Assembly (NCBI GenBank): GCA_900547315.1
Contig: URGI01000001.1
Location: 12,639-76,638 of the forward strand
Length of the DNA: 64,000 nt
DNA from: an uncultured Eubacteriales bacterium
GTDB taxonomy: Bacteria; Bacillota; Clostridia; Oscillospirales; Oscillospiraceae
Direction of reading: 5' to 3'
Shown here: in pieces, positions 25,116-43,402 of the stretch
How positions within the stretch are numbered: position 1 is the stretch's first letter
How the letters are laid out: each line of letters opens with the position of its first letter
Notes under the pieces: model-generated
Database searches by the model: none
Told to the model about the DNA's origin: nothing
The model's input: only the letters and a program-made list of their open reading frames with translations
Translations under genes and position numbers: made by a program

Positions 25116-26288
25116 TTATAAATTGTCCTGCGCCGAAAATACCGACTGCGCGAGCAACGCCGCGCCGCATACCGGCGTGTCATGCGCGGCATGGAACATC
25201 GGGTTGTGCCATAGGTAGGGCTTCTCTCCGGGGACGCCGGAGCCGAGAAAATAGAAGAAGGAGGGGACGCCCTCGCTCAGCAGCGAGAAATCCTCCGACG
25301 CCATGTTCACGGAGGGAACCTTTACGTTTTCCACCCCGAATACCGCGGCGCCCGCGTCCGACGCGGCCTTCAGCAGCGACTCGCTGTTGAAAACTCCGCG
25401 CGTGATCGGTATCAGCTCAAGCTCACAGGCGCAGCCGAATTCCTCCGCGGTGCCGTGCGCCATAAGCTCAACACGCTTGAGGATGCGCTCGCGCACGTCC
25501 TCTTCAAGACTGCGGATGTTGCCGGTTATCTCGGCGTCGTCGATCGTGGTGGTGAACGGCGTACCGGACTGGATGGAGCACACGGTCAGCACGGCGGACT
25601 CAAGTGGGCCGACATTGCGGCTTATGATAGTCTCAAGCGACATGACGAGGCTGGCGATGGCCACCGTCGGGTCGACATTTTTCTGCGGCGTGCTCGTATG
25701 GCCGCTTTTGCCGATGAACTTAATGCGGAAGCCATCTTTGAACGACATGAGCGGCCCGGCCTTGACGCCGACGGTGCCGACAGGCAGCTCCGGCAGATTG
25801 TGCAGCCCGAAAACGGCGCTGGGCTTGTACTGCGAAAAGACGTTGTGCTCAAGCATGTACTTTGCGCCCTTGAGCTTTTCCTCCGCCGGCTGGAACACAA
25901 AGAGCACGTTCGCGCGAAGCTCGTCCCGGTGCGCGCTCAGCAGCATCGCCGCGCCGAGCAGCCCCGCCGTATGGGTGTCGTGCCCGCAGCCGTGCATGAC
26001 TCCGGGCGTGAGGGATTTGTCCGGCCGGTCATATTCCTCGTGCTGCACGATAGCGTCGATGTCCGCGCGCAGCGCGATGGTCGCGTCCCCGCGGCCGCGG
26101 AGCAGCCCCACGACGCCGGTCTCAAGACCAAGGTCAAGTATCTCAATGCCGAGCTTCTCAAGCTGGGCGCGGATGATGGCGCTGGTGCGCTTTTCCTCAA
26201 AGCTCAGCTCAGGATGGGCGTGAAGGTCGGCAGTAATCGAATAAATCTGTTCGGAATAGTGTTTTTTTGCCTCTTCAAGAAGGTTCAA
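25116..26288 (-). CDS. M20/M20D family amidohydrolase (aminoacylase/hippurate-hydrolase-like; a possible N-carbamoyl or N-acyl amino acid amidohydrolase)
   Basis: 390-aa protein with the M20D metal-binding motifs (MHGCGHDTH, ...FQPAEE...). TTG start at 26288 after an AAAGGAG RBS. Divergent from the LacI-family regulator gene. Confidence 0.8.
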   Translation of the reverse strand: MNLLEEAKKHYSEQIYSITADLHAHPELSFEEKRTSAIIRAQLEKLGIEILDLGLETGVVGLLRGRGDATIALRADIDAIVQHEEYDRPDKSLTPGVMHGCGHDTHTAGLLGAAMLLSAHRDELRANVLFVFQPAEEKLKGAKYMLEHNVFSQYKPSAVFGLHNLPELPVGTVGVKAGPLMSFKDGFRIKFIGKSGHTSTPQKNVDPTVAIASLVMSLETIISRNVGPLESAVLTVCSIQSGTPFTTTIDDAEITGNIRSLEEDVRERILKRVELMAHGTAEEFGCACELELIPITRGVFNSESLLKAASDAGAAVFGVENVKVPSVNMASEDFSLLSEGVPSFFYFLGSGVPGEKPYLWHNPMFHAAHDTPVCGAALLAQSVFSAQDNL

Positions 26289-26463
26289 AAGTCGTCACTC
26301 CTTTCCCCACAACTCTTTAAGTATAAAATTTGCCGTCGGAAAACACAAGAGAAAAAATAAAAATCGCGAAATGACCAAAAATCTATCGAAAATTCTGTAC
26401 ATAGTGTCAATTGCAAATAGACAAAAACATGTTTATTATATATCTTGAAAAAAGTCATAGGGA

Positions 26464-26478
26464 AGTTAAACGATTATC
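26464..26478 (+). promoter_or_regulatory. Candidate LacI-family operator, copy 1 (AGTTAAACGATTATC), about 40 nt upstream of the regulator gene
   Basis: One of three copies of a near-palindromic 14-16-mer centred on CG. Exact string read from the sequence. Confidence 0.4.
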
Positions 26479-26514
26479 CGGGAGCAAACATCCCGAAAAA
26501 CGCAGTAAACGCAG

Positions 26515-27570
26515 ATGAATGGTAGAAAAGTAAGCTATGCGACAATAAAAGATGTTGCAGAGCTGGCCGAAACGTCTGTGGCGACCGTATCGTATATTCT
26601 CAGCGGAAAGTCCGAAAAGAGCTTCCGACAGGATACGGTGGACAGAGTTATGGCGGCTGTCGAGGAGCTGAATTACAGCAAGAACGCAATCGCCTCCGGA
26701 CTGCGCGGCAATAAGCGCGGCATGATCTACATCATTATCCCTCAGTTTTCAAACATATACTACACGCGAGTGTGCGAAGCGATAGAAAATGTTCTGTTTG
26801 AAAACGGACTTGTCCCCGTGATATGCGACACGAGAGAAGACCCGGAGCGTGAAAAGCGCCTGCTTGAGCTTGCGATAAGCCAGCGCTGCGACGGGATAGT
26901 GCTTGGGCCTACGATCAGAGGCTGGGAGAATACGGCGGCGGTCAGAAGCCTGAATATCCCGCTTGTCGTGGTCGGGCGCGAGCTTGGCTCGCCCAATGAC
27001 CAGAAGTCCTACTATTATGTAGGGGACGACAGCTATCAGGCCGGCTACCTTGCCGGAAGCGTCCTCGCAAAGGGCGGACATGAATCCATCGGAGTTATCG
27101 ACTGGGGAAGCCAGATCGGCTCGGCAATTGACCGAAGCAACGGCTTCACGGCGGCGATAAAAAAGCATTGCCCCGGTGTGAAGCTCATGCATGCGTCAAG
27201 CATGATCGTTGATGTAGATACCGGATACCAGCTTACGAAGAGCATATTTGGCGATAAAATGCCCAATGCACTCTTTTACAGCTACCATGTACTGGCGCAG
27301 GGAGGCATAACCTACCTTCACGAGCATGGCCTGCGCATCCCTGAGGATGTGACGATCTCGATGGTCGGCACACCGTCGTGGGCGAAGCTGCTGGAATCGC
27401 CGTGCACGATGGTAAATCAAAATGAAGATTGGGTTGGATCAACGGCGGCGAAGATAATGCTCCGTCTTATAGACGGAGATACGTCGAGCCTGCTCATGTC
27501 GGAATACCGGCATGTGTGCCGCTGCCAGCTCGTTGAACACAGCGGCTTCAGAAAAGCCGCGTCAAATTAG
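26515..27570 (+). CDS. LacI-family transcriptional regulator (HTH plus periplasmic-binding-protein-like sugar/ligand domain)
   Basis: N-terminal HTH ATIKDVAELAETSVATVSYIL and a C-terminal PBP-like domain. Confidence 0.85.
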   Translation: MNGRKVSYATIKDVAELAETSVATVSYILSGKSEKSFRQDTVDRVMAAVEELNYSKNAIASGLRGNKRGMIYIIIPQFSNIYYTRVCEAIENVLFENGLVPVICDTREDPEREKRLLELAISQRCDGIVLGPTIRGWENTAAVRSLNIPLVVVGRELGSPNDQKSYYYVGDDSYQAGYLAGSVLAKGGHESIGVIDWGSQIGSAIDRSNGFTAAIKKHCPGVKLMHASSMIVDVDTGYQLTKSIFGDKMPNALFYSYHVLAQGGITYLHEHGLRIPEDVTISMVGTPSWAKLLESPCTMVNQNEDWVGSTAAKIMLRLIDGDTSSLLMSEYRHVCRCQLVEHSGFRKAASN

Positions 27571-27608
27571 CAACGTTTACCGAAACAAGCCATTTTGGTA
27601 AACGTTGC
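27570..27608 (+). promoter_or_regulatory. Perfect 12-bp inverted repeat GCAACGTTTACC-N15-GGTAAACGTTGC just after the regulator stop (terminator-like hairpin or extended operator)
   Basis: Arms at 27570-27581 and 27597-27608. There is no U-tract afterwards, so its role is ambiguous. Confidence 0.35.
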
Positions 27609-27619
27609 AAAATAGGACA

Positions 27620-27635
27620 GGTTAAACGATTAACC
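27620..27635 (+). promoter_or_regulatory. Candidate LacI-family operator, copy 2 (GGTTAAACGATTAACC). A perfect palindrome TAGTTAACTA lies at 27642-27651.
   Basis: Near-palindrome with the same core as copies 1 and 3. Confidence 0.4.
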
Positions 27636-27755
27636 TAGATTTAGTTAACTACTTCACCGGAAAGAACCGGTTTGTGCAATCTGAAAAAAGACCGTAGGGG
27701 AGAAAAGCCCCGGAAAAAGACATGATTTCTGAAAATTGTGTCTTAACTTTAGCAA

Positions 27756-27771
27756 AGTTAAACGATTAACT
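27756..27771 (+). promoter_or_regulatory. Candidate LacI-family operator, copy 3 (AGTTAAACGATTAACT), about 100 nt upstream of the carbamate kinase start
   Basis: 7 of 8 palindromic pairs around the central CG. Identical core to copy 2. Confidence 0.4.
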
Positions 27772-27873
27772 ATTTTTCACTCATTTCACCTTTTGTTTAA
27801 CCTGCACAGAAAAGTCAGCAAATTCAATTTATATATATCATGTTTGCTCAAAAAATGGAAGGACGGTAAGATT

Positions 27874-28812
27874 ATGAAAAAAGTTGTTATTGCTCTCGGT
27901 GGAAACGCTCTTCAGGCAAGAGGCGAGGCCGCGACCAGCGAAAACCAGCTTAAGAACGTCATGGTGACCGCAGAGCACATCGCCAAGATAATCGGCGAGG
28001 GCTACAAGGTCATCGTCAGCCACGGCAACGGCCCCCAGGTCGGCAGAATCCTGCTCCAGAACGAGGCCGGCAAGAGCGTGACTCCTCCGATGCCGATGGA
28101 TGTCTGCGGCGCAATGACTCAGGGCATGATCGGATATCACATCCAGCAGGGTCTCTCTCAGGTTCTCCGCGAGAACGGCATTGACAAGCCCGTCTGCACC
28201 CTCGTGACTCAGGTCGAGGTCGACAGCGCTGACCCCGCATTCCAGAATCCCACCAAGCCTGTCGGCGCTTTCTACACCGAGGAAGAGGCCATGCAGATAC
28301 AGGCCGAGAAGGGCTACGCGATGAAGAAGGACGCGAACCGCGGCTACCGCAGAGTCGTTCCCTCCCCCAAGCCCCAGAAGATCATCGAGATCGACACCAT
28401 AAAGACCCTCGTCGACGGCGATACCGTTGTTGTCGCAGCAGGCGGCGGCGGAATCCCCGTGTGCAAGAAGGACGGCAAGTACGTCGGTATCGAGGCTGTT
28501 ATAGACAAGGACTTCGCCTCCGAGGTTCTCGCAGAGCAGCTTGACGCGGACATCCTGATGATCCTCACTGAGGTCGAGAACGTCTGCCTCAACTTCGGCA
28601 AGCCCGACGAGAAGGTTCTGCGTGAAGTCACTGCAGATGAGATGGACAAGTACGCGGCAGAAGGCCACTTCGCTCCCGGCAGCATGCTCCCGAAGGTTCA
28701 GGCCGTCAGCAAGTTCGTACACTCCAAGCCCGGCAGAGTCGCAGTCATCACCTCTCTGGAGAACGCCGTCAACGGCATCACCGGTGTAAAGGGAACCATC
28801 ATCAAAGGCTAA
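27874..28812 (+). CDS. arcC: Carbamate kinase
   Basis: Start at MKKVVIALGGNAL (ATG at 27874, GGAAGGACGG RBS). Amino-acid-kinase fold motifs throughout (e.g. VVVAAGGGGIPV). 312 aa. Confidence 0.85.
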   Translation: MKKVVIALGGNALQARGEAATSENQLKNVMVTAEHIAKIIGEGYKVIVSHGNGPQVGRILLQNEAGKSVTPPMPMDVCGAMTQGMIGYHIQQGLSQVLRENGIDKPVCTLVTQVEVDSADPAFQNPTKPVGAFYTEEEAMQIQAEKGYAMKKDANRGYRRVVPSPKPQKIIEIDTIKTLVDGDTVVVAAGGGGIPVCKKDGKYVGIEAVIDKDFASEVLAEQLDADILMILTEVENVCLNFGKPDEKVLREVTADEMDKYAAEGHFAPGSMLPKVQAVSKFVHSKPGRVAVITSLENAVNGITGVKGTIIKG

Positions 28813-28846
28813 GCGTCATTCATTATATTAATTAGGAGTTATAAAA

Positions 28847-30004
28847 ATGCGTGAAGTTATTCCTGTAAAATGCTCCATCGTCCGCGGCGGCACCAGCAAG
28901 GGCATCTTCATTATGGAAAATGAACTGCCCCGTGATCCCGAACTGCGCGACAAGTATATTCTTGAGATATTCGGCAGCCCCGATGTCCGTCAGATAGACG
29001 GTCTCGGCGGTGCGGACGTCCTCACCAGCAAGCTTGCGATAATCGGCCCGTCCAGCAGAGAAGATGCGGACGTCGATTATACCTTCGGTCAGGTCAGCTT
29101 CGTCGAGCCAAAGATCGACTACAAGTCCAACTGCGGCAACATCTCCGCCGGCGTTGCACCCTTTGCGATAAACAACGGCATTGTCAAGGCTGTTGAGCCC
29201 TACACCACCGTCCGCATCCATCAGGTCAACACCGACACCATCATCAACGCCAAGGTCGAGGTTCGTGACGGCAAGGCCGCTGTTGACGGCGACTTCCATA
29301 TCGACGGTGTTCCCACTCCCGGCTCCACGATCGAGCTTGACTTCTCCGACAGCGTCGGCGGCATCACCGGCAAGCTCCTTCCGACCGATAACGTTGTTGA
29401 CACCATCGTGACCGACGACGGCAAGAGCTACGAGGTCTCCGTGGTCGACGCGGGCATCCCAACCGTGTTCATTGAGGCCAAGTCCCTCGACATGAGCGGC
29501 ATCGAGACTCCCCAGCAGATCGAGGGCAACGCGGCGCTTATGACCAAGATCGAAGAGATCCGCGGCCGCTGCGCGGTAAAGATGGGCTTCACCGACGATT
29601 ACAAGAACGCCGTTAAGGATTGCCCCTACGCTCCGTTCTTCGCCATCGTCTCTCCGAGCCAGAGCTACCACACCTTCGACGGCAAGGACGTCAAGGGTGA
29701 GGACATCGACATCGTCAGCCGCCTCGTCTTCATGCAGAAGATGCATAAGACCCACCCCGTGACCGGCACCGTGTGCATGTCCACCGCGGCCCGCATCCCC
29801 GGCAGCATCGTCAACCGCAATCTCTCCGAGCGCGGCAAGGCCGAGCACCGTATATGGATCGGCCACCCGGCAGGCGTTATCCCGGCGGTCTCCGTCCTCG
29901 ACAACGTTGACGGCGAGTACAAGCTCCGCACCGCTGCCATTCTCCGCACCGCACGCGTCATCATGGACGGCACCGTATACGTGCGCCGCTCCAGAGTAGA
30001 GTAA
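28847..30004 (+). CDS. PrpF/AcnD-accessory family isomerase (2-methylaconitate or 3-methylitaconate isomerase-like)
   Basis: 385-aa protein with N-terminal IPVKCSIVRGGTSKGIFI, the hallmark of the PrpF/Mii family. Confidence 0.8.
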   Translation: MREVIPVKCSIVRGGTSKGIFIMENELPRDPELRDKYILEIFGSPDVRQIDGLGGADVLTSKLAIIGPSSREDADVDYTFGQVSFVEPKIDYKSNCGNISAGVAPFAINNGIVKAVEPYTTVRIHQVNTDTIINAKVEVRDGKAAVDGDFHIDGVPTPGSTIELDFSDSVGGITGKLLPTDNVVDTIVTDDGKSYEVSVVDAGIPTVFIEAKSLDMSGIETPQQIEGNAALMTKIEEIRGRCAVKMGFTDDYKNAVKDCPYAPFFAIVSPSQSYHTFDGKDVKGEDIDIVSRLVFMQKMHKTHPVTGTVCMSTAARIPGSIVNRNLSERGKAEHRIWIGHPAGVIPAVSVLDNVDGEYKLRTAAILRTARVIMDGTVYVRRSRVE

Positions 30005-30059
30005 GGGCGTTCAGCCAAAAGCTTTCAAATAAAAAAACAAAAAATTTCAGGAGGAAACC

Positions 30060-31448
30060 ATGAGCAAGTATTTAGCAGAGCAGATTTCTGAAGTAGTTGT
30101 CAACACCCATTTTGAGGATCTGCCCCAGTATGCAGTTGACAAAGCAAAGATGCTGACCCTCGACGTTCTGGCCTCTATGGTCGGTACCCGCAAGGTCATC
30201 TCCAGCGAAATCGCCCGCGATGTAGCGGCAGAGCTCGGCGGCCCGGAAGAGGCTTCCATCGTCGGCTACGGCAAGAAGGTTGCAGCACCCAACGCTGCAT
30301 TCGCAAATGCTATCCAGTGCTATGGTCTTGACTTCGTTGATGACCATAATGAATCCAACGCTCACCCCTCTCCCGTTACCTACCCCGTCAGCTTCGCACT
30401 CGCCGAGCAGCTCAAGCGCTCCGGTAAGGAATTCATCGAAGCCTGCGTTCTCGGTAACGAGATCGTCTGCCGTATGGGCAGCGCCTACCTCGGCGACATG
30501 TACACCCAGGGCTTCCATCCCACCAGCACCTGCGGCACCATGGGCGGTGTTGTCTCCGCTGCAAAGCTGATGAAGCTCGACGAGCAGAAGGTCTCCTACG
30601 CTCAGGGCATCGCCGGCTCCGCCGTTGCGGGTCTGATGGCATGGAACACCCAGGGCTCCTTCACCAAGCGTTACCAGGCCGGCCGTCCCTCCATGGACGT
30701 CATCGTTGCCGCACGCATGGCCGAGAAGGGCTTCAACGGACCTACCGACATCTTCGAGAGCCAGGACGGTCTGCTCCACGCATACTCCTACCAAGATCGC
30801 TACGACACCAACTGGATCACCAAGGATCTGGGCAAAGAGTGGATATTCGCCACCTCCAGCATCAAGGTTTACCCCTGCTGCCGTTACTCCGGCGGTCACC
30901 TCGACGCCTGCCTTGAGATCGTCCACAAGTATCATCCCGATCCCGCCAAGATCGCAAAGATCCACGTTCGCTCCTCCCTCCAGACCATGCACCTGCTGGC
31001 CGAGCCGCGCAAGTGGCATCCGGAAAACATCGTTGACCTGCAGTTCTCCATGCCTTACCAGGCAGCTGTCGCGTTCCTCAACGGCAAGTTCACTCCGGAC
31101 GAGCTGAATGTCGAGTACATCAAGAATCCGCTCATCCAGAAGATGATCGCCAACACCACCGTCGTCTGCGACGATGAGTTCGAGCGCCGTTATCCTGAGC
31201 ACTACTCCAGCGCTGTTACCATCACCATGGAAGACGGCACCGAGTACACCGCAGTTGTCGACGATCCTAAGGGCGACTGGAGAAATCCCGTTACCTACGA
31301 AGATGTCGAGAACAAGTTCCGTTACCTCGCCAATACCGTTTACGCTGATCCCGAGCGCACCGAGAAGATCATTGCTTTCGTCAAGGATCTTGAGAAGCAG
31401 CCCGACATGAGCGTTCTCATGGAGCTTGTAAACGACGAGGCCAAATAA
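30060..31448 (+). CDS. MmgE/PrpD family protein (2-methylcitrate dehydratase / cis-aconitate decarboxylase superfamily)
   Basis: 462-aa protein with the MmgE/PrpD architecture (N-terminal helical domain, conserved C-terminal region). Confidence 0.85.
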   Translation: MSKYLAEQISEVVVNTHFEDLPQYAVDKAKMLTLDVLASMVGTRKVISSEIARDVAAELGGPEEASIVGYGKKVAAPNAAFANAIQCYGLDFVDDHNESNAHPSPVTYPVSFALAEQLKRSGKEFIEACVLGNEIVCRMGSAYLGDMYTQGFHPTSTCGTMGGVVSAAKLMKLDEQKVSYAQGIAGSAVAGLMAWNTQGSFTKRYQAGRPSMDVIVAARMAEKGFNGPTDIFESQDGLLHAYSYQDRYDTNWITKDLGKEWIFATSSIKVYPCCRYSGGHLDACLEIVHKYHPDPAKIAKIHVRSSLQTMHLLAEPRKWHPENIVDLQFSMPYQAAVAFLNGKFTPDELNVEYIKNPLIQKMIANTTVVCDDEFERRYPEHYSSAVTITMEDGTEYTAVVDDPKGDWRNPVTYEDVENKFRYLANTVYADPERTEKIIAFVKDLEKQPDMSVLMELVNDEAK

Positions 31449-31479
31449 TTAAGCTTCGCAAGTGAGAGGAGATAAACAT

Positions 31480-32055
31480 ATGGGCGAAAGAAATGCCGAC
31501 TCTCGCGGGAAGAAGATAGTTTTCGTATCCAACTGCCTGCTCAACGCCAACAACAAGGTTCAGGAGTTTGCACGCTACCCCGGAATGTTTTTCGAGATAC
31601 TCACCACGCTCAACAGGTATGGCATCGGCGTCGAGCAGATGCCATGCCCGGAGACGCTGTACGCCGGAAACCAGCGCTGGTGGCACTCCCGCAATCTTTA
31701 CGATAATGCGGGCTTCAGAAGATTCTGCCGCGAGCTTGCCGAGCGGACGGTCGACTACATCGAGAACTACGGCATAGTAGGCTATCAGGTGGTCGGTATT
31801 CTGGTCTGCGACGGGTCCCCGACCTGCGGCTACTCCATCTCCAGCTATTACGAAAACGGCGGCGGTCATCCTGCCGAGCCGGTACGCAGCTTTAAAGAGC
31901 GCCCCGGCATATATACGGAGGAATTGCTCAAGGCGGTCGAGGCGCGGGGCGTGAAGCTCCCGCCGATATACGGCCTGCCGGTGGACGACAGAGATCGCAC
32001 CAACGAGCAGATAATCGCCGATTTTGACAGTTTCATTAATTCCAATCTCACCTAA
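31480..32055 (+). CDS. DUF523 family protein (TudS-like: three conserved Cys, [4Fe-4S]-dependent 2-thiouracil desulfidase family)
   Basis: IVFVSNCLL..., MPCPET and GSPTCGY match the three Cys-containing motifs of DUF523/TudS. Start at the ATG at 31480 with a GAGAGGAG RBS. Confidence 0.6.
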   Translation: MGERNADSRGKKIVFVSNCLLNANNKVQEFARYPGMFFEILTTLNRYGIGVEQMPCPETLYAGNQRWWHSRNLYDNAGFRRFCRELAERTVDYIENYGIVGYQVVGILVCDGSPTCGYSISSYYENGGGHPAEPVRSFKERPGIYTEELLKAVEARGVKLPPIYGLPVDDRDRTNEQIIADFDSFINSNLT

Positions 32056-32170
32056 TTTATATCGCGCTCGCTCCGGCTCCCCCCTTGCCGGAGTGAGCGC
32101 ACCTCCCCCTGCTTCTGGCTCATAGTGAGCATAGATTTATTTAGAAAAACAGAGAAGGGTTGTATTTACT

Positions 32171-33433
32171 ATGGGAATGACATTTGCACAGAAAGCTCTG
32201 GCAAGAGCCGCAGGCAAAGATTATGTTGATATAGGCGAAATCGTCATGGCGAACGTCGACGTGGCCATGATGGACGATATACTCGGCCCCAGAATCGAGA
32301 TCGCAGCCGGTTTGAAAGAACTGGGCGTTGACGTCTGGGACAAGTCCAAGGTCGTTGTCATAAGCGACCACTACACTCCTCCCTGCGAGATAAAGCAGGC
32401 TGAGGCCGTCCGCTTCACGCGCGACTGGTCCGAGGAGCACGAGGTGTCCTACTACGAGTACGCAGGACCGTGTCATCAGGTTCTGGCCGAGCGCTGCTAT
32501 GACCAGCCCGGCACCCTCGTCGTCGGCACCGACTCCCACACCTGCATGGCAGGCGCTTTCGGCGCGTTCGGCACCGGCATCGGCTCTACCGAGATGCTCG
32601 GCGTCGTCGCCACCGGCCAGATCTGGCTCAAGGTTCCCGAAAGCTTCCGCATTGAATGGAAAAACAAGCTCCCCGCGGGCGTATTTGCCAAGGACATGGT
32701 TCTCTATGACTGCGGCAAGATCGGCCACTCCGGAGCCACATATAAAGCACTTGAGTACTGCGGCGATATGATAAGCGCCCTGTCAATGGACGAGCGCATG
32801 GCCATCTCCAACATGGCCGTTGAGATGGGCGCGAAGGCCGGCTACATCCCGGCCGACGAAAAGACCCTCGAATACATCAAGGCGCACGGCGAGCTCAAGA
32901 ACTACGCGATGCTCTATCCCGACGCGGACGCCGTCTACGAGCGCAACTACGTGAACGACGCGGCGGCGCTTGTACCGCAGGTCGCCTGCCCGCACCACGT
33001 CGACAATGTCCACCCCGTCACCGAGGTGGAGGGCACCAAGCTCACCCAGGTCTACATCGGCTCCTGCACCGGCGGCAGAATTTCCGACCTGCGCACCGCA
33101 GCAAAGGTGCTCAAGGACAGGAAAGCGGCTCCCGGAATGCGCTTCCTCGTCTCCCCGGCCTCCAGAGAGGTCTACAAGATGGCGCTTAACGAAGGCATAC
33201 TCGATATCCTCACCGACGCCGGCGCGGTCATCGTCGCCCCGTCCTGCGGACTCTGCCTCGGCGCGCACACCGGCATACTCGCAGCCGGCGAGAGCTGCAT
33301 CTCCACCAGCAACCGCAACTTTATCGGACGTATGGGCAGCAAGAATGCGAACGTCTACCTCGGCTCTGCGGCAACCGTCGCAGCTTCCGCGATAGAGGGA
33401 CGTATAGCCGATCCAAGAAAGTATTTTGAATAA
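32171..33433 (+). CDS. Aconitase-family hydro-lyase large subunit, short LeuC-type (3-isopropylmalate / citramalate / dimethylmaleate dehydratase-like)
   Basis: 420-aa short-form LeuC with Fe-S ligand motifs GSCTGGR and APSCGLCLG. It is sited in a catabolic operon, not with leuAB. Confidence 0.8.
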   Translation: MGMTFAQKALARAAGKDYVDIGEIVMANVDVAMMDDILGPRIEIAAGLKELGVDVWDKSKVVVISDHYTPPCEIKQAEAVRFTRDWSEEHEVSYYEYAGPCHQVLAERCYDQPGTLVVGTDSHTCMAGAFGAFGTGIGSTEMLGVVATGQIWLKVPESFRIEWKNKLPAGVFAKDMVLYDCGKIGHSGATYKALEYCGDMISALSMDERMAISNMAVEMGAKAGYIPADEKTLEYIKAHGELKNYAMLYPDADAVYERNYVNDAAALVPQVACPHHVDNVHPVTEVEGTKLTQVYIGSCTGGRISDLRTAAKVLKDRKAAPGMRFLVSPASREVYKMALNEGILDILTDAGAVIVAPSCGLCLGAHTGILAAGESCISTSNRNFIGRMGSKNANVYLGSAATVAASAIEGRIADPRKYFE

Positions 33434-33451
33434 TCGGGAGGGAGAATAAAA

Positions 33452-33946
33452 ATGGATTCTGTAATCACCGGAAAGGTATGGAAATTCGGAGATGACATCA
33501 ATACCGACATAATATCTCCCGCCGAATACATGGACGCCAGCTACGGGGTTATCGGTAAGCACGCGATGGAGCGCGCGTTCCCCGGCTTCGCGGATGCTAT
33601 TGCACGGGGTGATATAATCGTTGCAGGTAAAAACTTCGGCTCCGGCTCCAGCCGCGAGACAGCGCAGATCGCTCTCATTTACGCGGGCGTCGGCGCGGTC
33701 ATTGCGAAGGACTTCGCCCGTATCTTCTTCAGAAACTGCATTAACGTCGGCCTGCCCGTTGTCAACTTTGCGGACACCGACAAGCTCAATCAGGGCGATG
33801 AGATACGCGTCAACTTCCTCTCCGGCGTGATCGAGGATCTCACCACCGGCGAGACCTATCACGGCAGCCGTCTGCCTGAAAACGTGCTTGCAATCGTGCA
33901 GGACGGCGGACTGAAGGAGCACCTGAAGAAAAGCCTCAAAAAATAA
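33452..33946 (+). CDS. Aconitase-family hydro-lyase small subunit, short LeuD-type
   Basis: 164-aa protein with N-terminal KFGDDINTDIISP and a GSSRE region typical of the LeuD swivel domain. Confidence 0.8.
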   Translation: MDSVITGKVWKFGDDINTDIISPAEYMDASYGVIGKHAMERAFPGFADAIARGDIIVAGKNFGSGSSRETAQIALIYAGVGAVIAKDFARIFFRNCINVGLPVVNFADTDKLNQGDEIRVNFLSGVIEDLTTGETYHGSRLPENVLAIVQDGGLKEHLKKSLKK

Positions 33947-33982
33947 GTAAAAACTTATATATATTTTCACGGAGGTAAAACA

Positions 33983-35173
33983 ATGGCAACACTGAAGACA
34001 ACCTTTGCCGGAGTTTCCATGCCGAACCCGTTCATGCTCGCATCCGCGCCTCCCACGACCAACTGTGAGATGGTAGCCCGCAGCTTTGACGCCGGCTGGG
34101 GCGGCGCCGTGCTCAAGACCATGGCATATGATCTGAGAATGGCACGCAATGTAAACCCGCGCATAGCGGCCTATAAGGTTGGCAAGTCCATCCACGGCTT
34201 TACTAACTTCGAGCTCGGCAGCCCGAAGCCCATCTCCAAGTGGCTTGAGGACGCGCGCTGGCTGAAGGAACGCTTCCCCGAACACGCCGTGTTCGTCAGC
34301 CTTCTGCACACGGAAGGTCTCGTCGAGGAACAGTGGCGCGAAGTGACCAGAATGTTCAACGATGCCGGTATCGACGGCTTCGAGCTGAACTTCTCATGCT
34401 CCCACGGTATGGCGGAAGCGGGCGGCGGCGCTCAGGTCGGCGGCAACGAGGAGGCTATAAAGATGGTCACCAACTGGGTCAGATCCGAAACCAATCTCCC
34501 GGTTATGCCAAAGCTTCCCGCAATGGTTCCCAACATCGGCAGCAAGGCTCGCGCGGCTGAGGAAGCCGGCGCAGACGCCATAGCAACGATAAACACCCTC
34601 AATTCCATTCCCGGAATCGACATCTATAATTTCGTCCCGTATCCCACGGTCGACGGCAAGAGCGCATTTTCCGGCATGAGCGGCCGCGCGATAAAGCCCA
34701 TCGCTCTGCGCACCGTCGCTCAGGTCGCCAAGGCCGTCAACATCCCGGTCTCCGGTATCGGCGGCATATACACATGGCAGGATGCGGTAGAGTTCATCCT
34801 CGCGGGCGCGTCCTCTCTGCAGGTCTGTTCCGCGGTCATGGAGAACGGCTACAAGTGCGTCGAGGCGATGAACAAGGGTCTCCTTAAGTATATGGAGGAG
34901 ATGGGCTTTGAGACGATAAGCGACTTCGTCGGCAAGGCGCTGCCCAACATTACCGCGCACAACAATCTTTCTAGAACCTATAAGCTCCACGCCGAGTGCG
35001 ACGAGACCAAGTGCATCGGCTGCTCCCGCTGCGTGGCGGTCTGCAGCGACAGCGCTTACAGCGCAATCAGCATGGACGGCAAGCACGCTTCCGTTGACGC
35101 GGCGAAGTGCGACGGCTGCGGCCTGTGCACTCAGGTCTGCCCGGCCGGAGCGCTCAGCATGAAGGTCAGATAA
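33983..35173 (+). CDS. PreA-like dihydropyrimidine/dihydroorotate dehydrogenase-family flavoprotein with a C-terminal 2x[4Fe-4S] ferredoxin domain
   Basis: 396-aa protein: TIM-barrel DHOD/DHPD-like core plus C-terminal CIGCSRCVAVC...CDGCGLCTQVCP. No PreT-like partner is encoded nearby. Confidence 0.8.
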   Translation: MATLKTTFAGVSMPNPFMLASAPPTTNCEMVARSFDAGWGGAVLKTMAYDLRMARNVNPRIAAYKVGKSIHGFTNFELGSPKPISKWLEDARWLKERFPEHAVFVSLLHTEGLVEEQWREVTRMFNDAGIDGFELNFSCSHGMAEAGGGAQVGGNEEAIKMVTNWVRSETNLPVMPKLPAMVPNIGSKARAAEEAGADAIATINTLNSIPGIDIYNFVPYPTVDGKSAFSGMSGRAIKPIALRTVAQVAKAVNIPVSGIGGIYTWQDAVEFILAGASSLQVCSAVMENGYKCVEAMNKGLLKYMEEMGFETISDFVGKALPNITAHNNLSRTYKLHAECDETKCIGCSRCVAVCSDSAYSAISMDGKHASVDAAKCDGCGLCTQVCPAGALSMKVR

Positions 35174-35194
35174 ACAGCAGGGGAGGCTGAGACA

Positions 35195-36580
35195 GTGAAC
35201 GATATCAACATTATAAACGGTACGATTGTTCGCCCTGAGGGCTGCGAGAAGGCCGATATCGGCATTCGCGGCGGAAAGATAGTCTCAGTGAACAAGCCCG
35301 GCAGCCTGACCGAAGCGGCTGAAAAAACGATAGATGCAAGCGGCCTGTATGTGTTTCCGGGGATGATAGATACCCATGTGCACATCCGCGGCGGTATCCT
35401 CTCCCACCGTGAGAGCTTTGCCTCCGGCACTCAGGCTGCCGCATCCGGCGGCATCACTACGATCATGGAGATGCCGATAGCGAACCCGCCCGCCTCCACG
35501 CCGGAAGCCTTCGATGCGCGGCGCAAGGAAATAGGCGAGCAGGCATATGTCGACTTCTGCATGTACGGCGGCGCCGGAAGCGATAACCTCGACCAGATAG
35601 AGCTGCTGACGAGCCACGGCGCGGCGGCATATAAGACCTTCCTGATGCCTCCCGTGCCCGGCCGCGAGAAGGAATTTTACGGCCTTTGCAGCGAGACTAC
35701 AGAACAGCTCACGGAGGTCATGGAGCGCGTGGCCGCGGTCGGCGGCGTGCTCTGCTGCCACAGCGAGCTGAACGAATACGTTGCTCCCTATGCCGCAAAG
35801 CTTATGGCCGAAGGCCGCAACGGCGTAAAGGCATGGGGCGAGTCGAGACCGATCGAGGCTGAGACGGAAGCCGTAAAGCGCGTCATTGCCGCCGCCGAAA
35901 AGACCGGCTGCAAGGCAGTTATCTGCCATGTCAGCGCACCGGAGACGGTCGAGCTTATCCAGCAGGCGAAGAAGCGCGGCGTGGATATACACGGCGAGAC
36001 CTGCCCGCAGTACATCCTGTATAACTGCGAGAATGCGGAAGCCGCCGGTGTGTTTGCCCGCATGAAGCCGCCGCTCCGCACTCCGGAGACCATGGAGAAG
36101 CTCATGCAGTGCTACGCCGACGGGCTCCTTGAGATAACCGGCAGCGACCATGCGCCGTACACCTACGAGGAGAAGACCCGCAGCGGCGAAGATATATGGC
36201 ATTGCTTCGACGGACTTCCCGGCCTTGAGCTGAGCCTGCGCCTTCTGCTGAACGCGGCATCCGACGGCAGACTCACCTATGAGGAGATCGCCTGCAACAC
36301 GGCCGAGAACCCCGCTGCGCTGTTTGGTATCGACGGCGCGAAGGGCAGGATCGAAGCCGGACGCGACGCCGACCTTGTGCTCGTAGAGCGACTGGACAAG
36401 CCGGAGACGCTGCATAAAGAGCAGCTCGTCACGAAGAGCCGCGAGAGCGCGGTGCTCTACGACGGCACGCAGATGACCCACCGCATCAAAGAAACCCTCG
36501 TGAGAGGAATCACCGTCTTCAAAGACGGCACCATTACCGTAAGCCATGGCTTCGGCCAGCTTATTATACCAAAATCCTAA
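35195..36580 (+). CDS. Cyclic amidohydrolase of the dihydropyrimidinase/hydantoinase/allantoinase family
   Basis: 461-aa protein with the metal-ligand motif DTHVHIR, the carbamylated-Lys region AAYKTFLM and the C-terminal Asp region GSDHAP. GTG start after a GGGGAGG RBS. Confidence 0.8.
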   Translation: MNDINIINGTIVRPEGCEKADIGIRGGKIVSVNKPGSLTEAAEKTIDASGLYVFPGMIDTHVHIRGGILSHRESFASGTQAAASGGITTIMEMPIANPPASTPEAFDARRKEIGEQAYVDFCMYGGAGSDNLDQIELLTSHGAAAYKTFLMPPVPGREKEFYGLCSETTEQLTEVMERVAAVGGVLCCHSELNEYVAPYAAKLMAEGRNGVKAWGESRPIEAETEAVKRVIAAAEKTGCKAVICHVSAPETVELIQQAKKRGVDIHGETCPQYILYNCENAEAAGVFARMKPPLRTPETMEKLMQCYADGLLEITGSDHAPYTYEEKTRSGEDIWHCFDGLPGLELSLRLLLNAASDGRLTYEEIACNTAENPAALFGIDGAKGRIEAGRDADLVLVERLDKPETLHKEQLVTKSRESAVLYDGTQMTHRIKETLVRGITVFKDGTITVSHGFGQLIIPKS

Positions 36581-36603
36581 ATCAACAAAAAAGGAGAACT
36601 ACT

Positions 36604-37590
36604 ATGAGAACAGACATGCGCGGAAGAGATTTTGTTACCCTTCAGGACTTCACCGGTGAAGAGATCCAGACCATTCTGGACGTAGCTTTCCAGCTGAAGC
36701 GCGAGAACGCTATCGGTCAGGCTCACGAGCTGCTCAAGAACAAGACCCTCGGTATGCTCTTTGCACAGCCCTCCACCCGTACCCGCGTCTCCTTTGAGAC
36801 TGGTATGACTCAGCTTGGCGGCCACGCTCAGTATTACAGCGAGGACTCCATGCAGCGCAAGAATAAGGAAACTTGGGCCGACACCGGTCTGGTTCTTTCC
36901 CGTTACCTCAACGCTCTGATGGTTCGTCTGTACGACCTTGAGGAGTACGGCATGGCTCGTGACATCATGAACGAGATCCGCAAGAACACCACTATCCCCG
37001 TCATCAACGGCCTCGACGACAAAGAGCATCCCTGCCAGTGCATGGGCGACCTGATGGTCATTCAGGAGAAGCTCGGCGCAGGCTGGAAGAAGAAAAAGAT
37101 CGTTATGAGCTGGGCATACTCCGACCGCGTCAAGTCCCCCGGCGTTCCTCAGGCAATGCTGACCGCATGCAGCCTGCTCGGCGCAGACATCACCCTCGCT
37201 TACCCGAAGGGATACGAACTTGACGACCAGTACATGGAGTTCGCTCAGAACGCCGCAAAGTCCTCCGGCTCCGTCATCAGCGTTACCAACGACATCTACG
37301 AAGCCTGCACCGGCGCAGACGTCATCTACGCAAAGAGCTGGGGCAGCACCCACGGTATGCCCAAGGACGAGGATAAGGAGTACCGCAAGCAGTTCGCCAA
37401 GGATTGGTGCATCTCCGACAAGCACTTCGAGCTTGCAAATCCTGTTTCCTACTACATGCATCCGCTGCCCGCAGCACGCCACGAGGAAGTCACCGACGAA
37501 GTCATCGACGGACCGCACTCCATCGTTTACGATCAGGCCGAGAACCGTCTGCACGCTCAGAAGGCAGTCCTCGCTCTGCTCATGAAGTAA
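36604..37590 (+). CDS. Carbamoyltransferase of the ATC/OTC family with divergent second-substrate motifs (substrate unknown)
   Basis: Carbamoyl-phosphate motifs STRTR and HPCQ are present. The positions equivalent to OTC SMG and HCLP read SWG and HPLP. No arcA or arcD is in the window. Confidence 0.8.
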   Translation: MRTDMRGRDFVTLQDFTGEEIQTILDVAFQLKRENAIGQAHELLKNKTLGMLFAQPSTRTRVSFETGMTQLGGHAQYYSEDSMQRKNKETWADTGLVLSRYLNALMVRLYDLEEYGMARDIMNEIRKNTTIPVINGLDDKEHPCQCMGDLMVIQEKLGAGWKKKKIVMSWAYSDRVKSPGVPQAMLTACSLLGADITLAYPKGYELDDQYMEFAQNAAKSSGSVISVTNDIYEACTGADVIYAKSWGSTHGMPKDEDKEYRKQFAKDWCISDKHFELANPVSYYMHPLPAARHEEVTDEVIDGPHSIVYDQAENRLHAQKAVLALLMK

Positions 37591-37657
37591 GAATTTAATA
37601 AGAAGTAACATAAACAAAAGCAAGATCAGACGATTCCCACTCTGCGAATGAAATAAT

Positions 37658-37715
37658 CGGGGCAGGAGGAGAACCTGCCCCGTGTTGGAAAGCGATCCGC
37701 GGTCGCTTTTCTCCG
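37658..37715 (+). terminator. Tandem hairpins ending operon 1 (CGGGGCAGG/CCTGCCCCG, then AGCGATC/GGTCGCT plus TTTTCTCC)
   Basis: 9-bp GC stem at 37658-37682. A second 7-bp stem at 37691-37707 is followed by a U-rich tract. Confidence 0.5.
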
Positions 37716-37788
37716 CAGGCCGTATGCTCAGTCGCGAGGGTATGCGAGGCGGAAAACATAAAGCAACATTTAGAGGAGGAAAAAATTT

Positions 37789-37938
37789 ATGTTCGGATTA
37801 CCGTTCCCAACCTATCTTGGCTGGCTTCTCGGCCCCGGCGTCATGATCTTCACGTTCTTGACAAGCTTTATCCTTTATAAGAACTATCTTAAAAAGGAAG
37901 CTGCCGAGGAAGCAGAAAAGAACAGCAAAGATAAGTAA
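37789..37938 (+). CDS. Small single-TM peptide (49 aa) immediately upstream of the SSS symporter (possible symporter accessory subunit)
   Basis: GAGGAGGA RBS 8 nt before the ATG at 37789. Translation is MFGLPFPTYLGWLLGPGVMIFTFLTSFILYKNYLKKEAAEEAEKNSKDK. It is absent from the ORF track because it is under 60 aa. Confidence 0.4.
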   Translation: MFGLPFPTYLGWLLGPGVMIFTFLTSFILYKNYLKKEAAEEAEKNSKDK

Positions 37939-37992
37939 ATAGCATATACCAGCAGAAACCTATCATGGCATAAAGTGACAGGAGGAAACCAA

Positions 37993-39483
37993 ATGGATAG
38001 TAAAATCAAAATAATGGGTTATGCGGTCCATGGCTTGTACTTCGTTGGTATGCTGGCTATCGGTTATTTTTGCAACAAGAAGTATGCAAACAATGTTGAT
38101 GGCTTCTTTGCCGGCGGCAAGAACCTTGGCCCATGGGTCTTCGCACTTACCTACGGTTCAACTTATCTCAGCTCTTCGACGTTTGTCGGCAACACCGCCA
38201 CGGCTTACTCCGGCGGTCTTGCCTACCTTTTCATGCCCCTTGCGCAGATGCTCTTACTCCCCCTCGGACTTATCTTCTTCTCCCACATCCTGCGTAAGAT
38301 GAGTCAGTCATTGGATGTTGTCACTATCCCTGCATATCTTGAAAAACGTTTCAAGAGTCCCGCTGCCGGAATGATAACCTCCCTCATTATCGTCATTTTC
38401 TTCATTCCCTATCTCGTTGGCATAGTCAAGGCATCGGCGCTTTCGCTGGGTGCTCTTCTTGGCGTTGAGTACAAAATCGGTGTTCTCGTTATCGCGTTCA
38501 TCAGTTTTGTTTATCTCATGTTCGGCGGCTATATGGCTCGCTGCTACACTGACGTGGTTCAGGGTGTGATGATGGTCGTCGGTATGATGGCGGTTGTTAT
38601 TGCCGGCTTCTTCATTGTCGGCGGACCGAGCGCCATTACCGAAGGCGTGAAGGCAGCCGATCCCGCGCTCCTTGAGACCCCCGGTCCTAAGGGCTGGAGC
38701 GCACTGTTCCTCTATTCCACTGTTTTTGCAATAGCCCCGTGGGGACTTCCCACTCTCGTTCAGACCAACTTCACCATAGGCAACAGAAAGCATGTTTACA
38801 CCGCCGCTATCGTTCTGTCCATTTGGATATCCTGTGTCCTCTTCGGCTCCATGATAATCGGCAACATGGGCCGCGCCTTCTACGGCAACGCTCTTGTTGA
38901 TAATCCTGACTCCCTGTTCCCGACGCTGGTTATTGACTGGTTCCCGAACCTCTTCGGTGCTATAATTATCGTTGCGGTCATCTGCGCGGCAATGTCTACA
39001 ATTGACGGCACGCTGATGAACTCCGGCGCCGCTGTCGGCCTTGATATATACAAGCGTTTTATCAAGAAGGACGCGAGCGACAAGAAGGTCATTACGATCT
39101 CCAACATAGCAATGGGCGTTATCACGCTTGTCGTTATAATCTGGGCGTTTGATCCTCCCGCAATGGTGCTCACCCTCACAAGCTACGCGTTCTCTCTGGT
39201 CGCTGCCGGACTTATCGTTCCCACCTATGCGGGTCTTTACTGCAAGAAGCTCACCAGCGCAGGCTGCGTGGTTGGTATTCTTGCCGGTCTTGGCTTCTGC
39301 CTGCTGTGGTACATTACCGGTACGCCGCTTGGGATCCCTCCGTTCGTTGTCGGTATGGTCGCCTCCGCGATCGCTCTCTTCGGCGTCAGCAAGTTCACCA
39401 AGCCCCTGCCTCAGGAGTTTATTGACGATCTGTTCGCAAAGCTCAAGAACAACGCATACGTTACGGAAACTGTGGAAAAGTAA
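37993..39483 (+). CDS. Sodium:solute symporter (SSS) family transporter
   Basis: About 496-aa protein with 13-14 predicted TM helices and the SSS-family pattern. ATG at 37993 after an AGGAGGA RBS. Confidence 0.8.
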   Translation: MDSKIKIMGYAVHGLYFVGMLAIGYFCNKKYANNVDGFFAGGKNLGPWVFALTYGSTYLSSSTFVGNTATAYSGGLAYLFMPLAQMLLLPLGLIFFSHILRKMSQSLDVVTIPAYLEKRFKSPAAGMITSLIIVIFFIPYLVGIVKASALSLGALLGVEYKIGVLVIAFISFVYLMFGGYMARCYTDVVQGVMMVVGMMAVVIAGFFIVGGPSAITEGVKAADPALLETPGPKGWSALFLYSTVFAIAPWGLPTLVQTNFTIGNRKHVYTAAIVLSIWISCVLFGSMIIGNMGRAFYGNALVDNPDSLFPTLVIDWFPNLFGAIIIVAVICAAMSTIDGTLMNSGAAVGLDIYKRFIKKDASDKKVITISNIAMGVITLVVIIWAFDPPAMVLTLTSYAFSLVAAGLIVPTYAGLYCKKLTSAGCVVGILAGLGFCLLWYITGTPLGIPPFVVGMVASAIALFGVSKFTKPLPQEFIDDLFAKLKNNAYVTETVEK

Positions 39484-39607
39484 CACGCACGTTTCACTCC
39501 AAGATTCCCGTGTATCGAGGTTGGCCACCTCGATATGCGGGATGATAAAAAACGAGCATAAACTAAAAATTTAACGTAAGTTTTACACATCCAAAAAGGG
39601 AGATCTG

Positions 39608-41257: not shown

Positions 41258-41280
41258 TCGACCTCAAACAGGAGCAAAAA

Positions 41281-42105
41281 ATGAGAAACGTAACTATCAG
41301 CGTCATCCAGCTTGAAAACAAGCTCTTTGATAAGAATGCGAACCTTCTCAAGGCCGACGGACTCATCCGTCAGGCCGCGGCAAAGGGCGCAAAAATGATA
41401 TGCCTGCCCGAACTTTTTGTCACGGGCTACAACCTCAACGCCTTCGGCGACAGGATATATGAGCTTGGCGAAGGGCTGACCGGCCCCACCATCACTCATA
41501 TGCGCGCTCTGGCAAAGGAGCTTGGCGTGTACATAATAGCGCCCATAGCCATGCAGATGCGCACGACCCGCCCGCTGGAGAACAACGCCGTCGTTATCGA
41601 CGACGAGGGCGAGGTCATCGGCACCTACAGCAAAAACCATCTCTTCGGCGACGAGCCGAAATACTTCACCGCCAACGGTGAATACCCGGTGTTTGACACC
41701 AAATACGGCAAGATCGGCATAATGATCTGCTGCGATAACAACTTCCCCGAACCCGCGCGCATCCTTGCGCTCGGCGGCGCGGAGCTGATATTCATGCCCG
41801 CGGCATGGCGCGTACAGGAAGCGGATCTGTGGAAGCTCCTCATCTCCTCGCACGCCTGCGAGAACAATGTGTTCATCGCCGCAGCCAATGTCTTCAGCCG
41901 TATGGACGATCTGTTCCTTTTCGGACACAGCAAGGTCGTCGATCCCAGAGGCAGAGTTCTGCGCGAATCCGAGACGGAGGGAGACGATGTGCTCGTTGAG
42001 ACCATCGATCTCGATTCCGTGTACGAGCATCGCGCCTGCATGCCCAGCCTCAAGGATCGCCACCCCGAAACCTACGATGCGTTCATCGAACCGGTGAACG
42101 TGTAA
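41281..42105 (+). CDS. Carbon-nitrogen hydrolase family amidase (nitrilase superfamily branch that includes N-carbamoyl-amino-acid amidohydrolases, beta-ureidopropionase and omega-amidase)
   Basis: Catalytic triad context: E in LPELF, K in YSKNHLF, C in MICCDNNFPE. Confidence 0.8.
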   Translation: MRNVTISVIQLENKLFDKNANLLKADGLIRQAAAKGAKMICLPELFVTGYNLNAFGDRIYELGEGLTGPTITHMRALAKELGVYIIAPIAMQMRTTRPLENNAVVIDDEGEVIGTYSKNHLFGDEPKYFTANGEYPVFDTKYGKIGIMICCDNNFPEPARILALGGAELIFMPAAWRVQEADLWKLLISSHACENNVFIAAANVFSRMDDLFLFGHSKVVDPRGRVLRESETEGDDVLVETIDLDSVYEHRACMPSLKDRHPETYDAFIEPVNV

Positions 42106-42192
42106 GCACAGCGAAAGCGGGCGGTGCGCAAATCATTTGCCGCGCCGCCTGCAAATTAAGCCTTTGGCTTTATTATAATGGAGGAAAATAAA

Positions 42193-43383: not shown

Positions 43384-43402
43384 TTTTCGGGAGGTAAGAA
43401 TA

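Follow-up and report, generated by a model that had tools for sequence, protein, structure and literature searches.

Predicted LacI-type operators around a LacI/PurR-family regulator gene next to a putative ureide or pyrimidine-like catabolic operon in an uncultured gut Clostridia bacterium

The DNA analysed here is a 64,000-nucleotide stretch (the window; G+C content 58%) of contig URGI01000001.1 from an uncultured Eubacteriales bacterium. It carries a gene for a LacI/PurR-family transcription factor, placed between a divergent M20-family amidohydrolase gene and a nine-gene unit, operon 1. Three copies of a near-palindromic box with the consensus RGTTAAACGATTAACY lie in the intergenic regions on either side of the regulator gene. 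All elements named in an earlier reading of this DNA (the original prediction) were found where it had placed them. The features of this region are listed below.

25116 to 26288, minus strand: M20-family amidohydrolase gene, divergent from the regulator gene (Pfam Peptidase_M20, E=3.5e-35; NCBIfam TIGR01891, 303 bits)
26411 to 26439, plus strand: candidate sigma-70-type promoter of the regulator gene, TTGCAA-17-TATTAT (consensus scan, 9/12 matches)
26464 to 26479, no strand: box 1, AGTTAAACGATTATCC, predicted autoregulatory operator (24.2 bits by position weight matrix, PWM)
26515 to 27570, plus strand: LacI/PurR-family transcription factor gene, 351 aa (Pfam LacI helix-turn-helix PF00356, E=1.4e-13, plus Peripla_BP_1/3/4 core)
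27570 to 27608, plus strand: hairpin H1, formed by the 12-bp inverted repeat GCAACGTTTACC-N15-GGTAAACGTTGC (16 pairs, 7-nt loop)
27620 to 27635, no strand: box 2, GGTTAAACGATTAACC, predicted distal operator in the operon leader (PWM 26.0 bits)
27643 to 27658, no strand: CG-less box-like element, AGTTAACTACTTCACC, which contains the palindrome TAGTTAACTA (half-site PWM 18.4 bits)
27717 to 27744, plus strand: hairpin or palindrome H2, AAGACATGATTT-CTGA-AAATTGTGTCTT, just 5' of box 3 (folding energy, dG, -10.1 kcal/mol, z = -4.3)
27756 to 27771, no strand: box 3, AGTTAAACGATTAACT, predicted proximal operator of operon 1 (PWM 26.8 bits)
27874 to 37590, plus strand: operon 1, nine genes from carbamate kinase to carbamoyltransferase (Pfam, NCBIfam)

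The closest solved structure to the regulator is that of E. coli PurR (E=7e-30, residues 9 to 318). The hinge leucine, L63, is invariant among 19 orthologues, which would agree with a requirement for the central CpG that is invariant in the boxes. The C-terminus stops soon past the core, and its sequence lacks a LacI-like heptad tetramerisation helix. The gene ends with a TAG stop codon, the G of which is the first base of H1, and the leader of operon 1 that follows is 303 nt long.

Each box is a 16-mer comprising two near-palindromic arms of seven bases around a CG: AGTTAAA-CG-ATTATCC for box 1, GGTTAAA-CG-ATTAACC for box 2 and AGTTAAA-CG-ATTAACT for box 3. The original prediction had described three copies of one 15-mer. 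The boxes are indeed at the places it gave, and box 1 is an imperfect copy, its 15-mer (26464-26478, AGTTAAACGATTATC) carrying one mismatch, with TTATC at its end and not TTAAC. Box 1 begins 25 bp past the -10 hexamer of the candidate promoter and is centred 43.5 bp upstream of the regulator ATG. The centres of boxes 2 and 3 lie 246.5 and 110.5 bp upstream of the carbamate kinase ATG, respectively. Centre-to-centre spacings are 136 bp between boxes 2 and 3 and 1156 bp between boxes 1 and 2.

The scores of boxes 1 to 3 given above come from a symmetric PWM whose 17 training boxes were all taken from other loci, the window being excluded to avoid circularity. The fourth-best site in the window reaches 8.2 bits. 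From the exact score distribution, 4e-4 chance sites of at least 24 bits are expected in the 64 kb, and 4e-5 in the two intergenic regions (529 bp) when their own AT-rich composition is used. AT-richness is thus not the explanation of the boxes, and the background check that the original prediction had called for shows that they are not random in the window. Within the same 64 kb, the 14-mer core, with up to three mismatches allowed, matches nowhere but at the three boxes. No further PWM site was found within the window, and this includes the 385-bp gap upstream of the second transcription unit (operon 2), for which additional regulon sites had been anticipated.

Operators of LacI/GalR regulators are even palindromes of 16-22 bp with a central CG, located in non-coding DNA, typically 30-140 bp before a start codon, and a cognate regulator with a helix-turn-helix and a hinge leucine is encoded nearby. 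All three boxes have this form and such a regulator gene lies beside them; boxes 1 and 3 fall within the positional range, and box 2 lies outside it and is counted as distal. Among the motifs described for the LacI family, 1251 of 1303 are even palindromes, 1173 of these have a central CG, and more than 75% of the sites lie upstream of the start codon at a distance of 30-140 bp; 72% of the regulators are autoregulated (PMC4052901).

A protein search with the regulator revealed a sharply bounded group of orthologues with 43-81% identity, after which identity falls to about 32%. The surrounding DNA was fetched for twelve orthologues, and 7-16 kb were examined per locus (loci are designated by L numbers). 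A scan of GTDB representative genomes returned the same species only (L001, 99% identity) together with two paralogues at 24-25%. L001 lies on a 51-kb contig of the uncultured Clostridiales metagenome-assembled genome UMGS1216, the sole public genome with this regulator. In the 13 orthologous loci (regulators 43-99% identical), strong boxes are confined to the intergenic DNA on the two sides of the regulator gene: in every locus a single box precedes the regulator, and the leader of the gene that follows has one to three. The box upstream of the regulator precedes the ATG by 38-105 bp in 12 of the 13 loci and by 166 bp in L019. In most other loci the centre of the proximal leader box is 68-127 bp before the ATG of the first gene, and distal boxes equivalent to box 2 were observed in L006, L010, L012, L013, L018, L015, L016 and L019. 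The consensus drawn from the orthologous loci is GGTTAAACGTTTAACC. The phylogenetic footprint expected of LacI/GalR operators was thus found in 13/13 loci; LacI-family motifs are ordinarily assigned on evidence of this sort.

The closest relatives, L004 and L017, encode regulators that are 81% and 77% identical to that of the window. In three-way alignments of these loci with the window, the three boxes are invariant islands amid diverging intergenic DNA. The core of box 1, GTTAAACGATTATCC, is identical in L004 and L017, and AAGTTAAACGATT of box 3 is invariant in both.

Box type varies together with the recognition helix of the regulator. Boxes of the closer orthologues are of the GTTAAACG(A/T)TTAAC type and those of the four most distant loci (L014, L015, L016, L019) of the TGTAAACG(A/T)TTACA type, with intermediate boxes in L013 (GGGTAAACG and ACTTAAACG). 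At the position that opens the recognition helix, marked x in TS-x-ATVSY and occupied by Val22 in the window, regulators with GTTAA boxes have Val, Ala or Ser, 8/8 members of the second clade, which has TGTAA boxes, have Thr, and the L013 protein has Ile. From our own alignment to the LacI sequence, we take Val22 to be equivalent to LacI Tyr17. The classical specificity positions of LacI are Tyr17, Gln18 and Arg22, so that the first helix position is among them. Such a correlation would be expected if the regulator reads these boxes, and it is supporting evidence of that kind.

The candidate promoter of the regulator gene gives box 1 its context. Its -35 hexamer and flank, TCTGTACATAGTGTCAATTGCAAATAG (26394-26420), are nearly invariant in L004 and L017. 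A promoter-like site (9-11/12 matches) also precedes the autoregulatory box in L006, L008, L010, L012, L014, L015 and L016, and in these seven loci and the window the box lies 8-42 bp past the -10. A perfect TTGACA on the minus strand abuts TTGCAA in the TCTGTACATAGTGTCAATTGCAAATAG block and faces the M20 gene; no acceptable -10 hexamer was found for it.

We conclude, with a probability of roughly 85%, that the three boxes are operators of the adjacent LacI/PurR regulator, which would control its own gene and operon 1. The proposal that they are LacI-type operators with a central CG draws strong support from the phylogenetic footprint, the geometry of the sites and the co-variation of regulator and box, and the predicted autoregulation through box 1 and control of operon 1 through the leader boxes agree with the footprint in 13 loci and with the promoter geometry. 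A regulator dimer would bind each box. Box 1 would lie in the early transcribed region, where the bound regulator would hinder RNA polymerase at or just past the start and so give negative autoregulation. The proximal box 3 and the distal box 2, the latter flanked by the CG-less auxiliary box, would repress the catabolic operon until a small-molecule effector frees the regulator. This effector would presumably be a ureide or pyrimidine-like substrate, or an early intermediate. H1 would be a separate feature, an RNA stem-loop at the 3' end of the regulator message that forms the boundary to the operon leader.

Several observations weigh against this conclusion. A strict consensus scan finds no promoter in the leader of operon 1, and a relaxed one yields three candidates, all of them weak (8/12 matches each) and none conserved:

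27749 to 27776, plus strand: TTAGCA-16-TATTTT, with box 3 in the spacer
Loop of H2, plus strand: an extended -10, which would place box 3 at about +12 to +27
27812 to 27841, plus strand: AAGTCA-18-TATCAT, which would place box 3 at about -85

As the operon promoter is not pinned down, promoter occlusion, roadblock and looping are not distinguishable. The spacings between leader boxes range from 94 to 218 bp across loci, without helical phasing. The second transcription unit (transporters, CN-hydrolase, CoA-transferase and lyase) has no box in the window, although homologues of its genes are directly linked to a box in L014, L016 and L019. The co-variation between helix residue and box type is confounded by phylogeny, since the Thr group is a single clade and effectively one evolutionary event; it is therefore counted as support and not as proof. 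Finally, the boxes of the distant orthologues match the consensus of the catabolite-responsive element (cre), TGWAANCGNTNWCA, so CcpA cross-talk or misassignment is possible at those loci.

DNA looping between the boxes was considered and is unsupported, because the spacing is unphased across loci and the regulator has no tetramerisation tail. Read-through into operon 1 from the promoter of the regulator is possible. An isolated right half-site, GTTTAACCTG (27795-27804), is the exact complement of CAGGTTAAAC at box 2 (27618-27627). The three closest loci all keep it downstream of box 3, and RNAalifold pairs it with the box 2 region, without compensatory change. Two other repeats were rejected as being at chance level by our own estimate: a 10-nt complement between the two 5' leaders (I4), the regulator-side arm of which is not kept in L004 and L017, and an 11-nt direct repeat (D7).

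The leader of operon 1 harbors a fourth element related to the boxes. The original prediction had noted a perfect palindrome, TAGTTAACTA, at 27642-27651. It is present, and it is merely the left part of a conserved 16-bp element, AGTTAA-N4-TTCACC, which has no CG; with some 0.3-0.6 palindromes of 10 bp expected by chance per 300 AT-rich bases (our estimate), TAGTTAACTA alone is insignificant. In the larger element the half-sites are conserved and the central 4 bp vary: AGTTAA-CTAC-TTCACC in the window, GGTTAA-ATTA-TTAACC in L004 (GGTTAAATTATTAACC) and AGTTAA-CGAA-TTCACC in L017 (AGTTAACGAATTCACC). When scored with a PWM of the half-sites only, this element reaches 18.4 bits, compared with 18.7-21.3 for the three boxes and 11.4 for the next site in the 64 kb. 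The pattern AGTTAANNNNTTCACC, with up to two mismatches, matches four sites only, the three boxes and the CG-less element. The latter is 23 bp from box 2, centre to centre, and a similar CG-less box lies 24 bp past the autoregulatory box in L008. It is probably a low-affinity auxiliary site, judging from its half-sites, and it may be filled cooperatively; alternatively, it could be a decaying duplicate.

The 12-bp inverted repeat, which the original prediction had grouped with the operators, is better described as RNA. H1 folds with a dG of -21.9 kcal/mol (z = -7.85), and its counterparts in L004 and L017 also fold stably. All 15 aligned pairs are kept in the three loci: one C-G has become U-A by compensatory change and two further changes give wobbles. 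The loop varies from 7 to 11 nt. The idea that this repeat, and perhaps H2, is a DNA site bound by this regulator or by another dimeric protein draws on the TAAACG that its arms share with the boxes, on the fact that a dimeric protein would also keep dyad symmetry, so that compensatory changes are not unique to RNA, and on the overlap of H2 with a -10-like hexamer. We consider it improbable. The arms score 6.4 and 3.2 bits, against at least 24 for the boxes, and the good half-sites of the repeat point outwards (TTTACC...GGTAAA), which is the wrong orientation for a box; on these two grounds the arms were also rejected as weak boxes. One change in L017 yields a U-G wobble in H1, which keeps the RNA pair and breaks the DNA symmetry, and a variable loop length argues likewise against a DNA site. 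Moreover, more distant loci have unrelated stable hairpins at the same place, 0-35 nt past the regulator stop codon, those of L012 and L013 with the A-tract and U-tract of intrinsic terminators. H1 itself has the stable G+C-containing stem-loop of an intrinsic terminator and lacks its U-tract: the tail, AAAAUAGGA, has one U in nine positions, and the terminator scan is silent. It is therefore named a 3'-end stem-loop of the regulator mRNA, with a role in termination, processing or stability. In several loci (L010, L014 and L019 were compared), the tail past the post-regulator hairpin is A-rich rather than U-rich (AAAAUAGG, AAUCAAAAA, AAAAU and AAAAGUAAA).

Eleven pairs of H2 are kept in the three loci, with compensatory changes at two positions. 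Its loop contains a -10-like hexamer (GAAAAT in the window, TAAAAT in L004 and TGTTAAAAT in L017). H2 could be an RNA structure, the site of a second protein or part of a promoter, and we do not decide between the three. A CodY box was also considered within H2. The CodY consensus is AATTTTCWGAAAATT, and TGATTTCTGAAAATT matches it at 12/15 positions in the window only; as neither L004 nor L017 keeps this match, it is probably a coincidence.

The boxes might instead be cre sites of CcpA, which would place the operon under carbon catabolite repression rather than under the local regulator. CcpA is also a LacI-family protein that recognises a 14-16-bp palindrome with a central CG, and the boxes of L014, L015, L016 and L019 (TGTAAACG(A/T)TTACA) fit the cre consensus. 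In the window and the closer relatives, however, the half-site is GTTAAA and not TGWAAN, with two mismatches in each half-site, at the TG/CA that cre conserves most: the window boxes, GTTAAACGATTAAC, have G-T for T-G and A-C for C-A, and a fit was obtained only in L014-L016 and L019. In addition, the boxes of every locus are restricted to the surroundings of the local regulator gene, its own upstream region included, and their type tracks the recognition helix of the local regulator. The regulator shares its family and operator form with CcpA and scores 98 bits with the CcpA model, for which the cut-off is 442. We regard the cre explanation as very unlikely for the window.

Least credible of all is that the boxes act as RNA elements of a transcribed leader (small hairpins, or something riboswitch-like) instead of protein-binding DNA. 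In its favour, every box could pair into a stem of 6 bp, the leader is more stably folded than its shuffled versions (z = -4.3), and the two covarying hairpins indicate that part of it may be structured RNA. Against it, the boxes decay in one half-site at a time with no compensating change (as in AGTTAAACGATTATCC and GGTGAAACGTTTATAT), and the bases that do not vary, the central CG with the adjoining AA/TT, would form the hairpin loop. The same box occurs in two different transcripts, and Rfam gives no match at the gathering threshold in the window and, at E<=1 in 26280-27900, only a spurious miRNA-precursor match at the hairpin.

The LacI-type operators proposed here resemble several known systems. 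The PUR box of E. coli PurR (ACGCAAACGTTTGCGT) is likewise an even palindrome, 16 bp long and centred on CG, and it shares the inner core AAACGTTT with the window boxes, as the two regulators share the hinge-helix leucine; the outer half-site is ACGC for PurR and GGTT in the window. PurR is a global, co-repressor-dependent regulator of biosynthesis, whereas the window regulator is local and lies next to a catabolic operon, which makes induction by a ligand the likelier logic. PurR senses nucleobases, not sugars, and regulates itself (general knowledge and PMC4052901). The window regulator is not a PurR orthologue, because it scores 143 bits against a cut-off of 501 for the PurR model. AdeR, HpxR and UriR, LacI-family regulators known from comparative genomics that serve nucleoside or nucleobase utilisation, are local, usually autoregulated and bind palindromic CG-centred motifs, as predicted for the window regulator, which scores 93 bits with the UriR model (cut-off 550). 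They belong to a non-carbohydrate minority, since 96% of the LacI-family groups with an assigned pathway are sugar-related (PMC4052901). The genes next to the window regulator differ from theirs in combining a reductive ring-opening module with PrpF-, PrpD- and LeuCD-like enzymes, and no described regulog for this gene set was found in the literature searched. In the lac (O1/O2/O3) and gal (OE/OI) systems, the main operator is near the promoter or in the early transcribed region and the auxiliary operators are 100-1200 bp away, comparable to the spacings of 136 and 1156 bp in the window; unlike in those systems, the regulator has no tetramerisation helix and the boxes are unphased.

Operon 1 is not a sugar operon and, from its gene content, is predicted to encode a ureide or pyrimidine-like catabolic pathway. 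Its genes and those of the second transcription unit are as follows.

27874 to 28812, plus strand: carbamate kinase (above the TIGR00746 cut-off)
28847 to 30004, plus strand: PrpF-like isomerase
30060 to 31448, plus strand: MmgE/PrpD-family protein
31462 to 32055, plus strand: TudS-related CD3072-family Fe-S protein
32171 to 33433 and 33452 to 33946, plus strand: aconitase/LeuCD-like large and small subunits
33983 to 35173, plus strand: PreA/PydAc-like dihydropyrimidine/dihydroorotate dehydrogenase with two [4Fe-4S] motifs
35195 to 36580, plus strand: allantoinase/hydantoinase-like cyclic amidohydrolase
36604 to 37590, plus strand: ornithine/putrescine-carbamoyltransferase-like (OTCase-like) enzyme
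Second transcription unit: 49-codon membrane open reading frame (ORF), SSF symporter, allantoin-permease-like NCS1 transporter, CN-hydrolase, family III CoA-transferase and HMG-CoA-lyase-like enzyme

The order of the operon 1 genes downstream of the regulator is repeated in L004-L012 and L018, and the M20 gene adjoins the regulator in most of the fetched loci (L004-L012, L014-L016 and L018). No box was found near the start of the M20 gene in the window, whereas L012, L014 and L015 have extra boxes there. The regulator is followed by an NCS1 permease and a CN-hydrolase in L014 and L019, and by a carbamoyltransferase and an SSF transporter in L016. These gene orders indicate that the second-unit genes are part of the same functional system.

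The conserved cluster spans 25116-44314. It includes a reductive ring-opening module (reductase, amidohydrolase, carbamoyltransferase, carbamate kinase, M20 and CN-hydrolase), and it also encodes the PrpF-like, MmgE/PrpD-like, LeuCD/DmdAB-like, TudS-related, family III CoA-transferase and HMG-CoA-lyase-like proteins and the NCS1 and SSF transporters. The modules described for reductive ring degradation of uracil and urate in Clostridia have a PydAc/UacX reductase that depends on ferredoxin, along with cyclic amidohydrolases and a pair of carbamoyltransferase and carbamate kinase (PMC12507026). The module of the window resembles these and is combined with enzymes for branched di- or tricarboxylic acids; no description of this gene combination was found in the literature searched. 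Orotate, thymine or uracil, thiouracil, 5-carboxymethyluracil, hydantoin-5-propionate, allantoin, ectoine and biotin were weighed as substrates, without a decision between them.

As a predicted operator, the motif is a textbook case of the LacI family that reveals nothing new on mechanism, and its predicted target, a conserved cluster putatively for a nitrogen heterocycle or ureide rather than a sugar, is mildly unusual. A more specific proposal, which we make tentatively and hold at less than even odds, is that the regulator is the ligand sensor of an undescribed anaerobic pyrimidine-like or ureide pathway in uncultured gut Clostridia. In such a pathway, a ferredoxin-dependent, PydAc-like ring reductase would act alongside a cyclic amidohydrolase, an ATP-conserving carbamoyltransferase/carbamate-kinase pair, the PrpF-, PrpD-, LeuCD- and TudS-like proteins, the CoA-transferase and the HMG-CoA-lyase-like enzyme, and the four-site layout, CG-less operator included, would serve cooperative binding. 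If this is true, the regulator would be among the very few LacI-family regulators outside sugar metabolism.

The analysis ties a putative sensor protein and a 16-bp motif (RGTTAAACGWTTAACY) to a gene cluster conserved among uncultured Clostridia of the human gut and related bacteria. In purified form, the regulator could serve in a ligand screen (uracil, dihydrouracil, orotate, hydantoins, allantoin and N-carbamoyl amino acids), which might give a clue to the substrate, and the PWM could delimit the regulon in complete genomes. A metagenome-wide scan with a 14-16-mer would return hundreds to thousands of chance matches by our estimate, and regulon members could carry variant boxes.

Two terminator-like hairpins lie past the carbamoyltransferase gene (37659-37714 and 37789-37938), with the arms GGGGCAGG-N7-CCTGCCCC and AAGCGA..TCGCTT, the latter followed by TTTCTCC. 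The hydrophobic ORF of 49 codons (MFGLPFPTYLGWLLGPGVMIFTFL...) is immediately 5' of the SSF symporter gene and probably encodes a small membrane subunit of this transporter.

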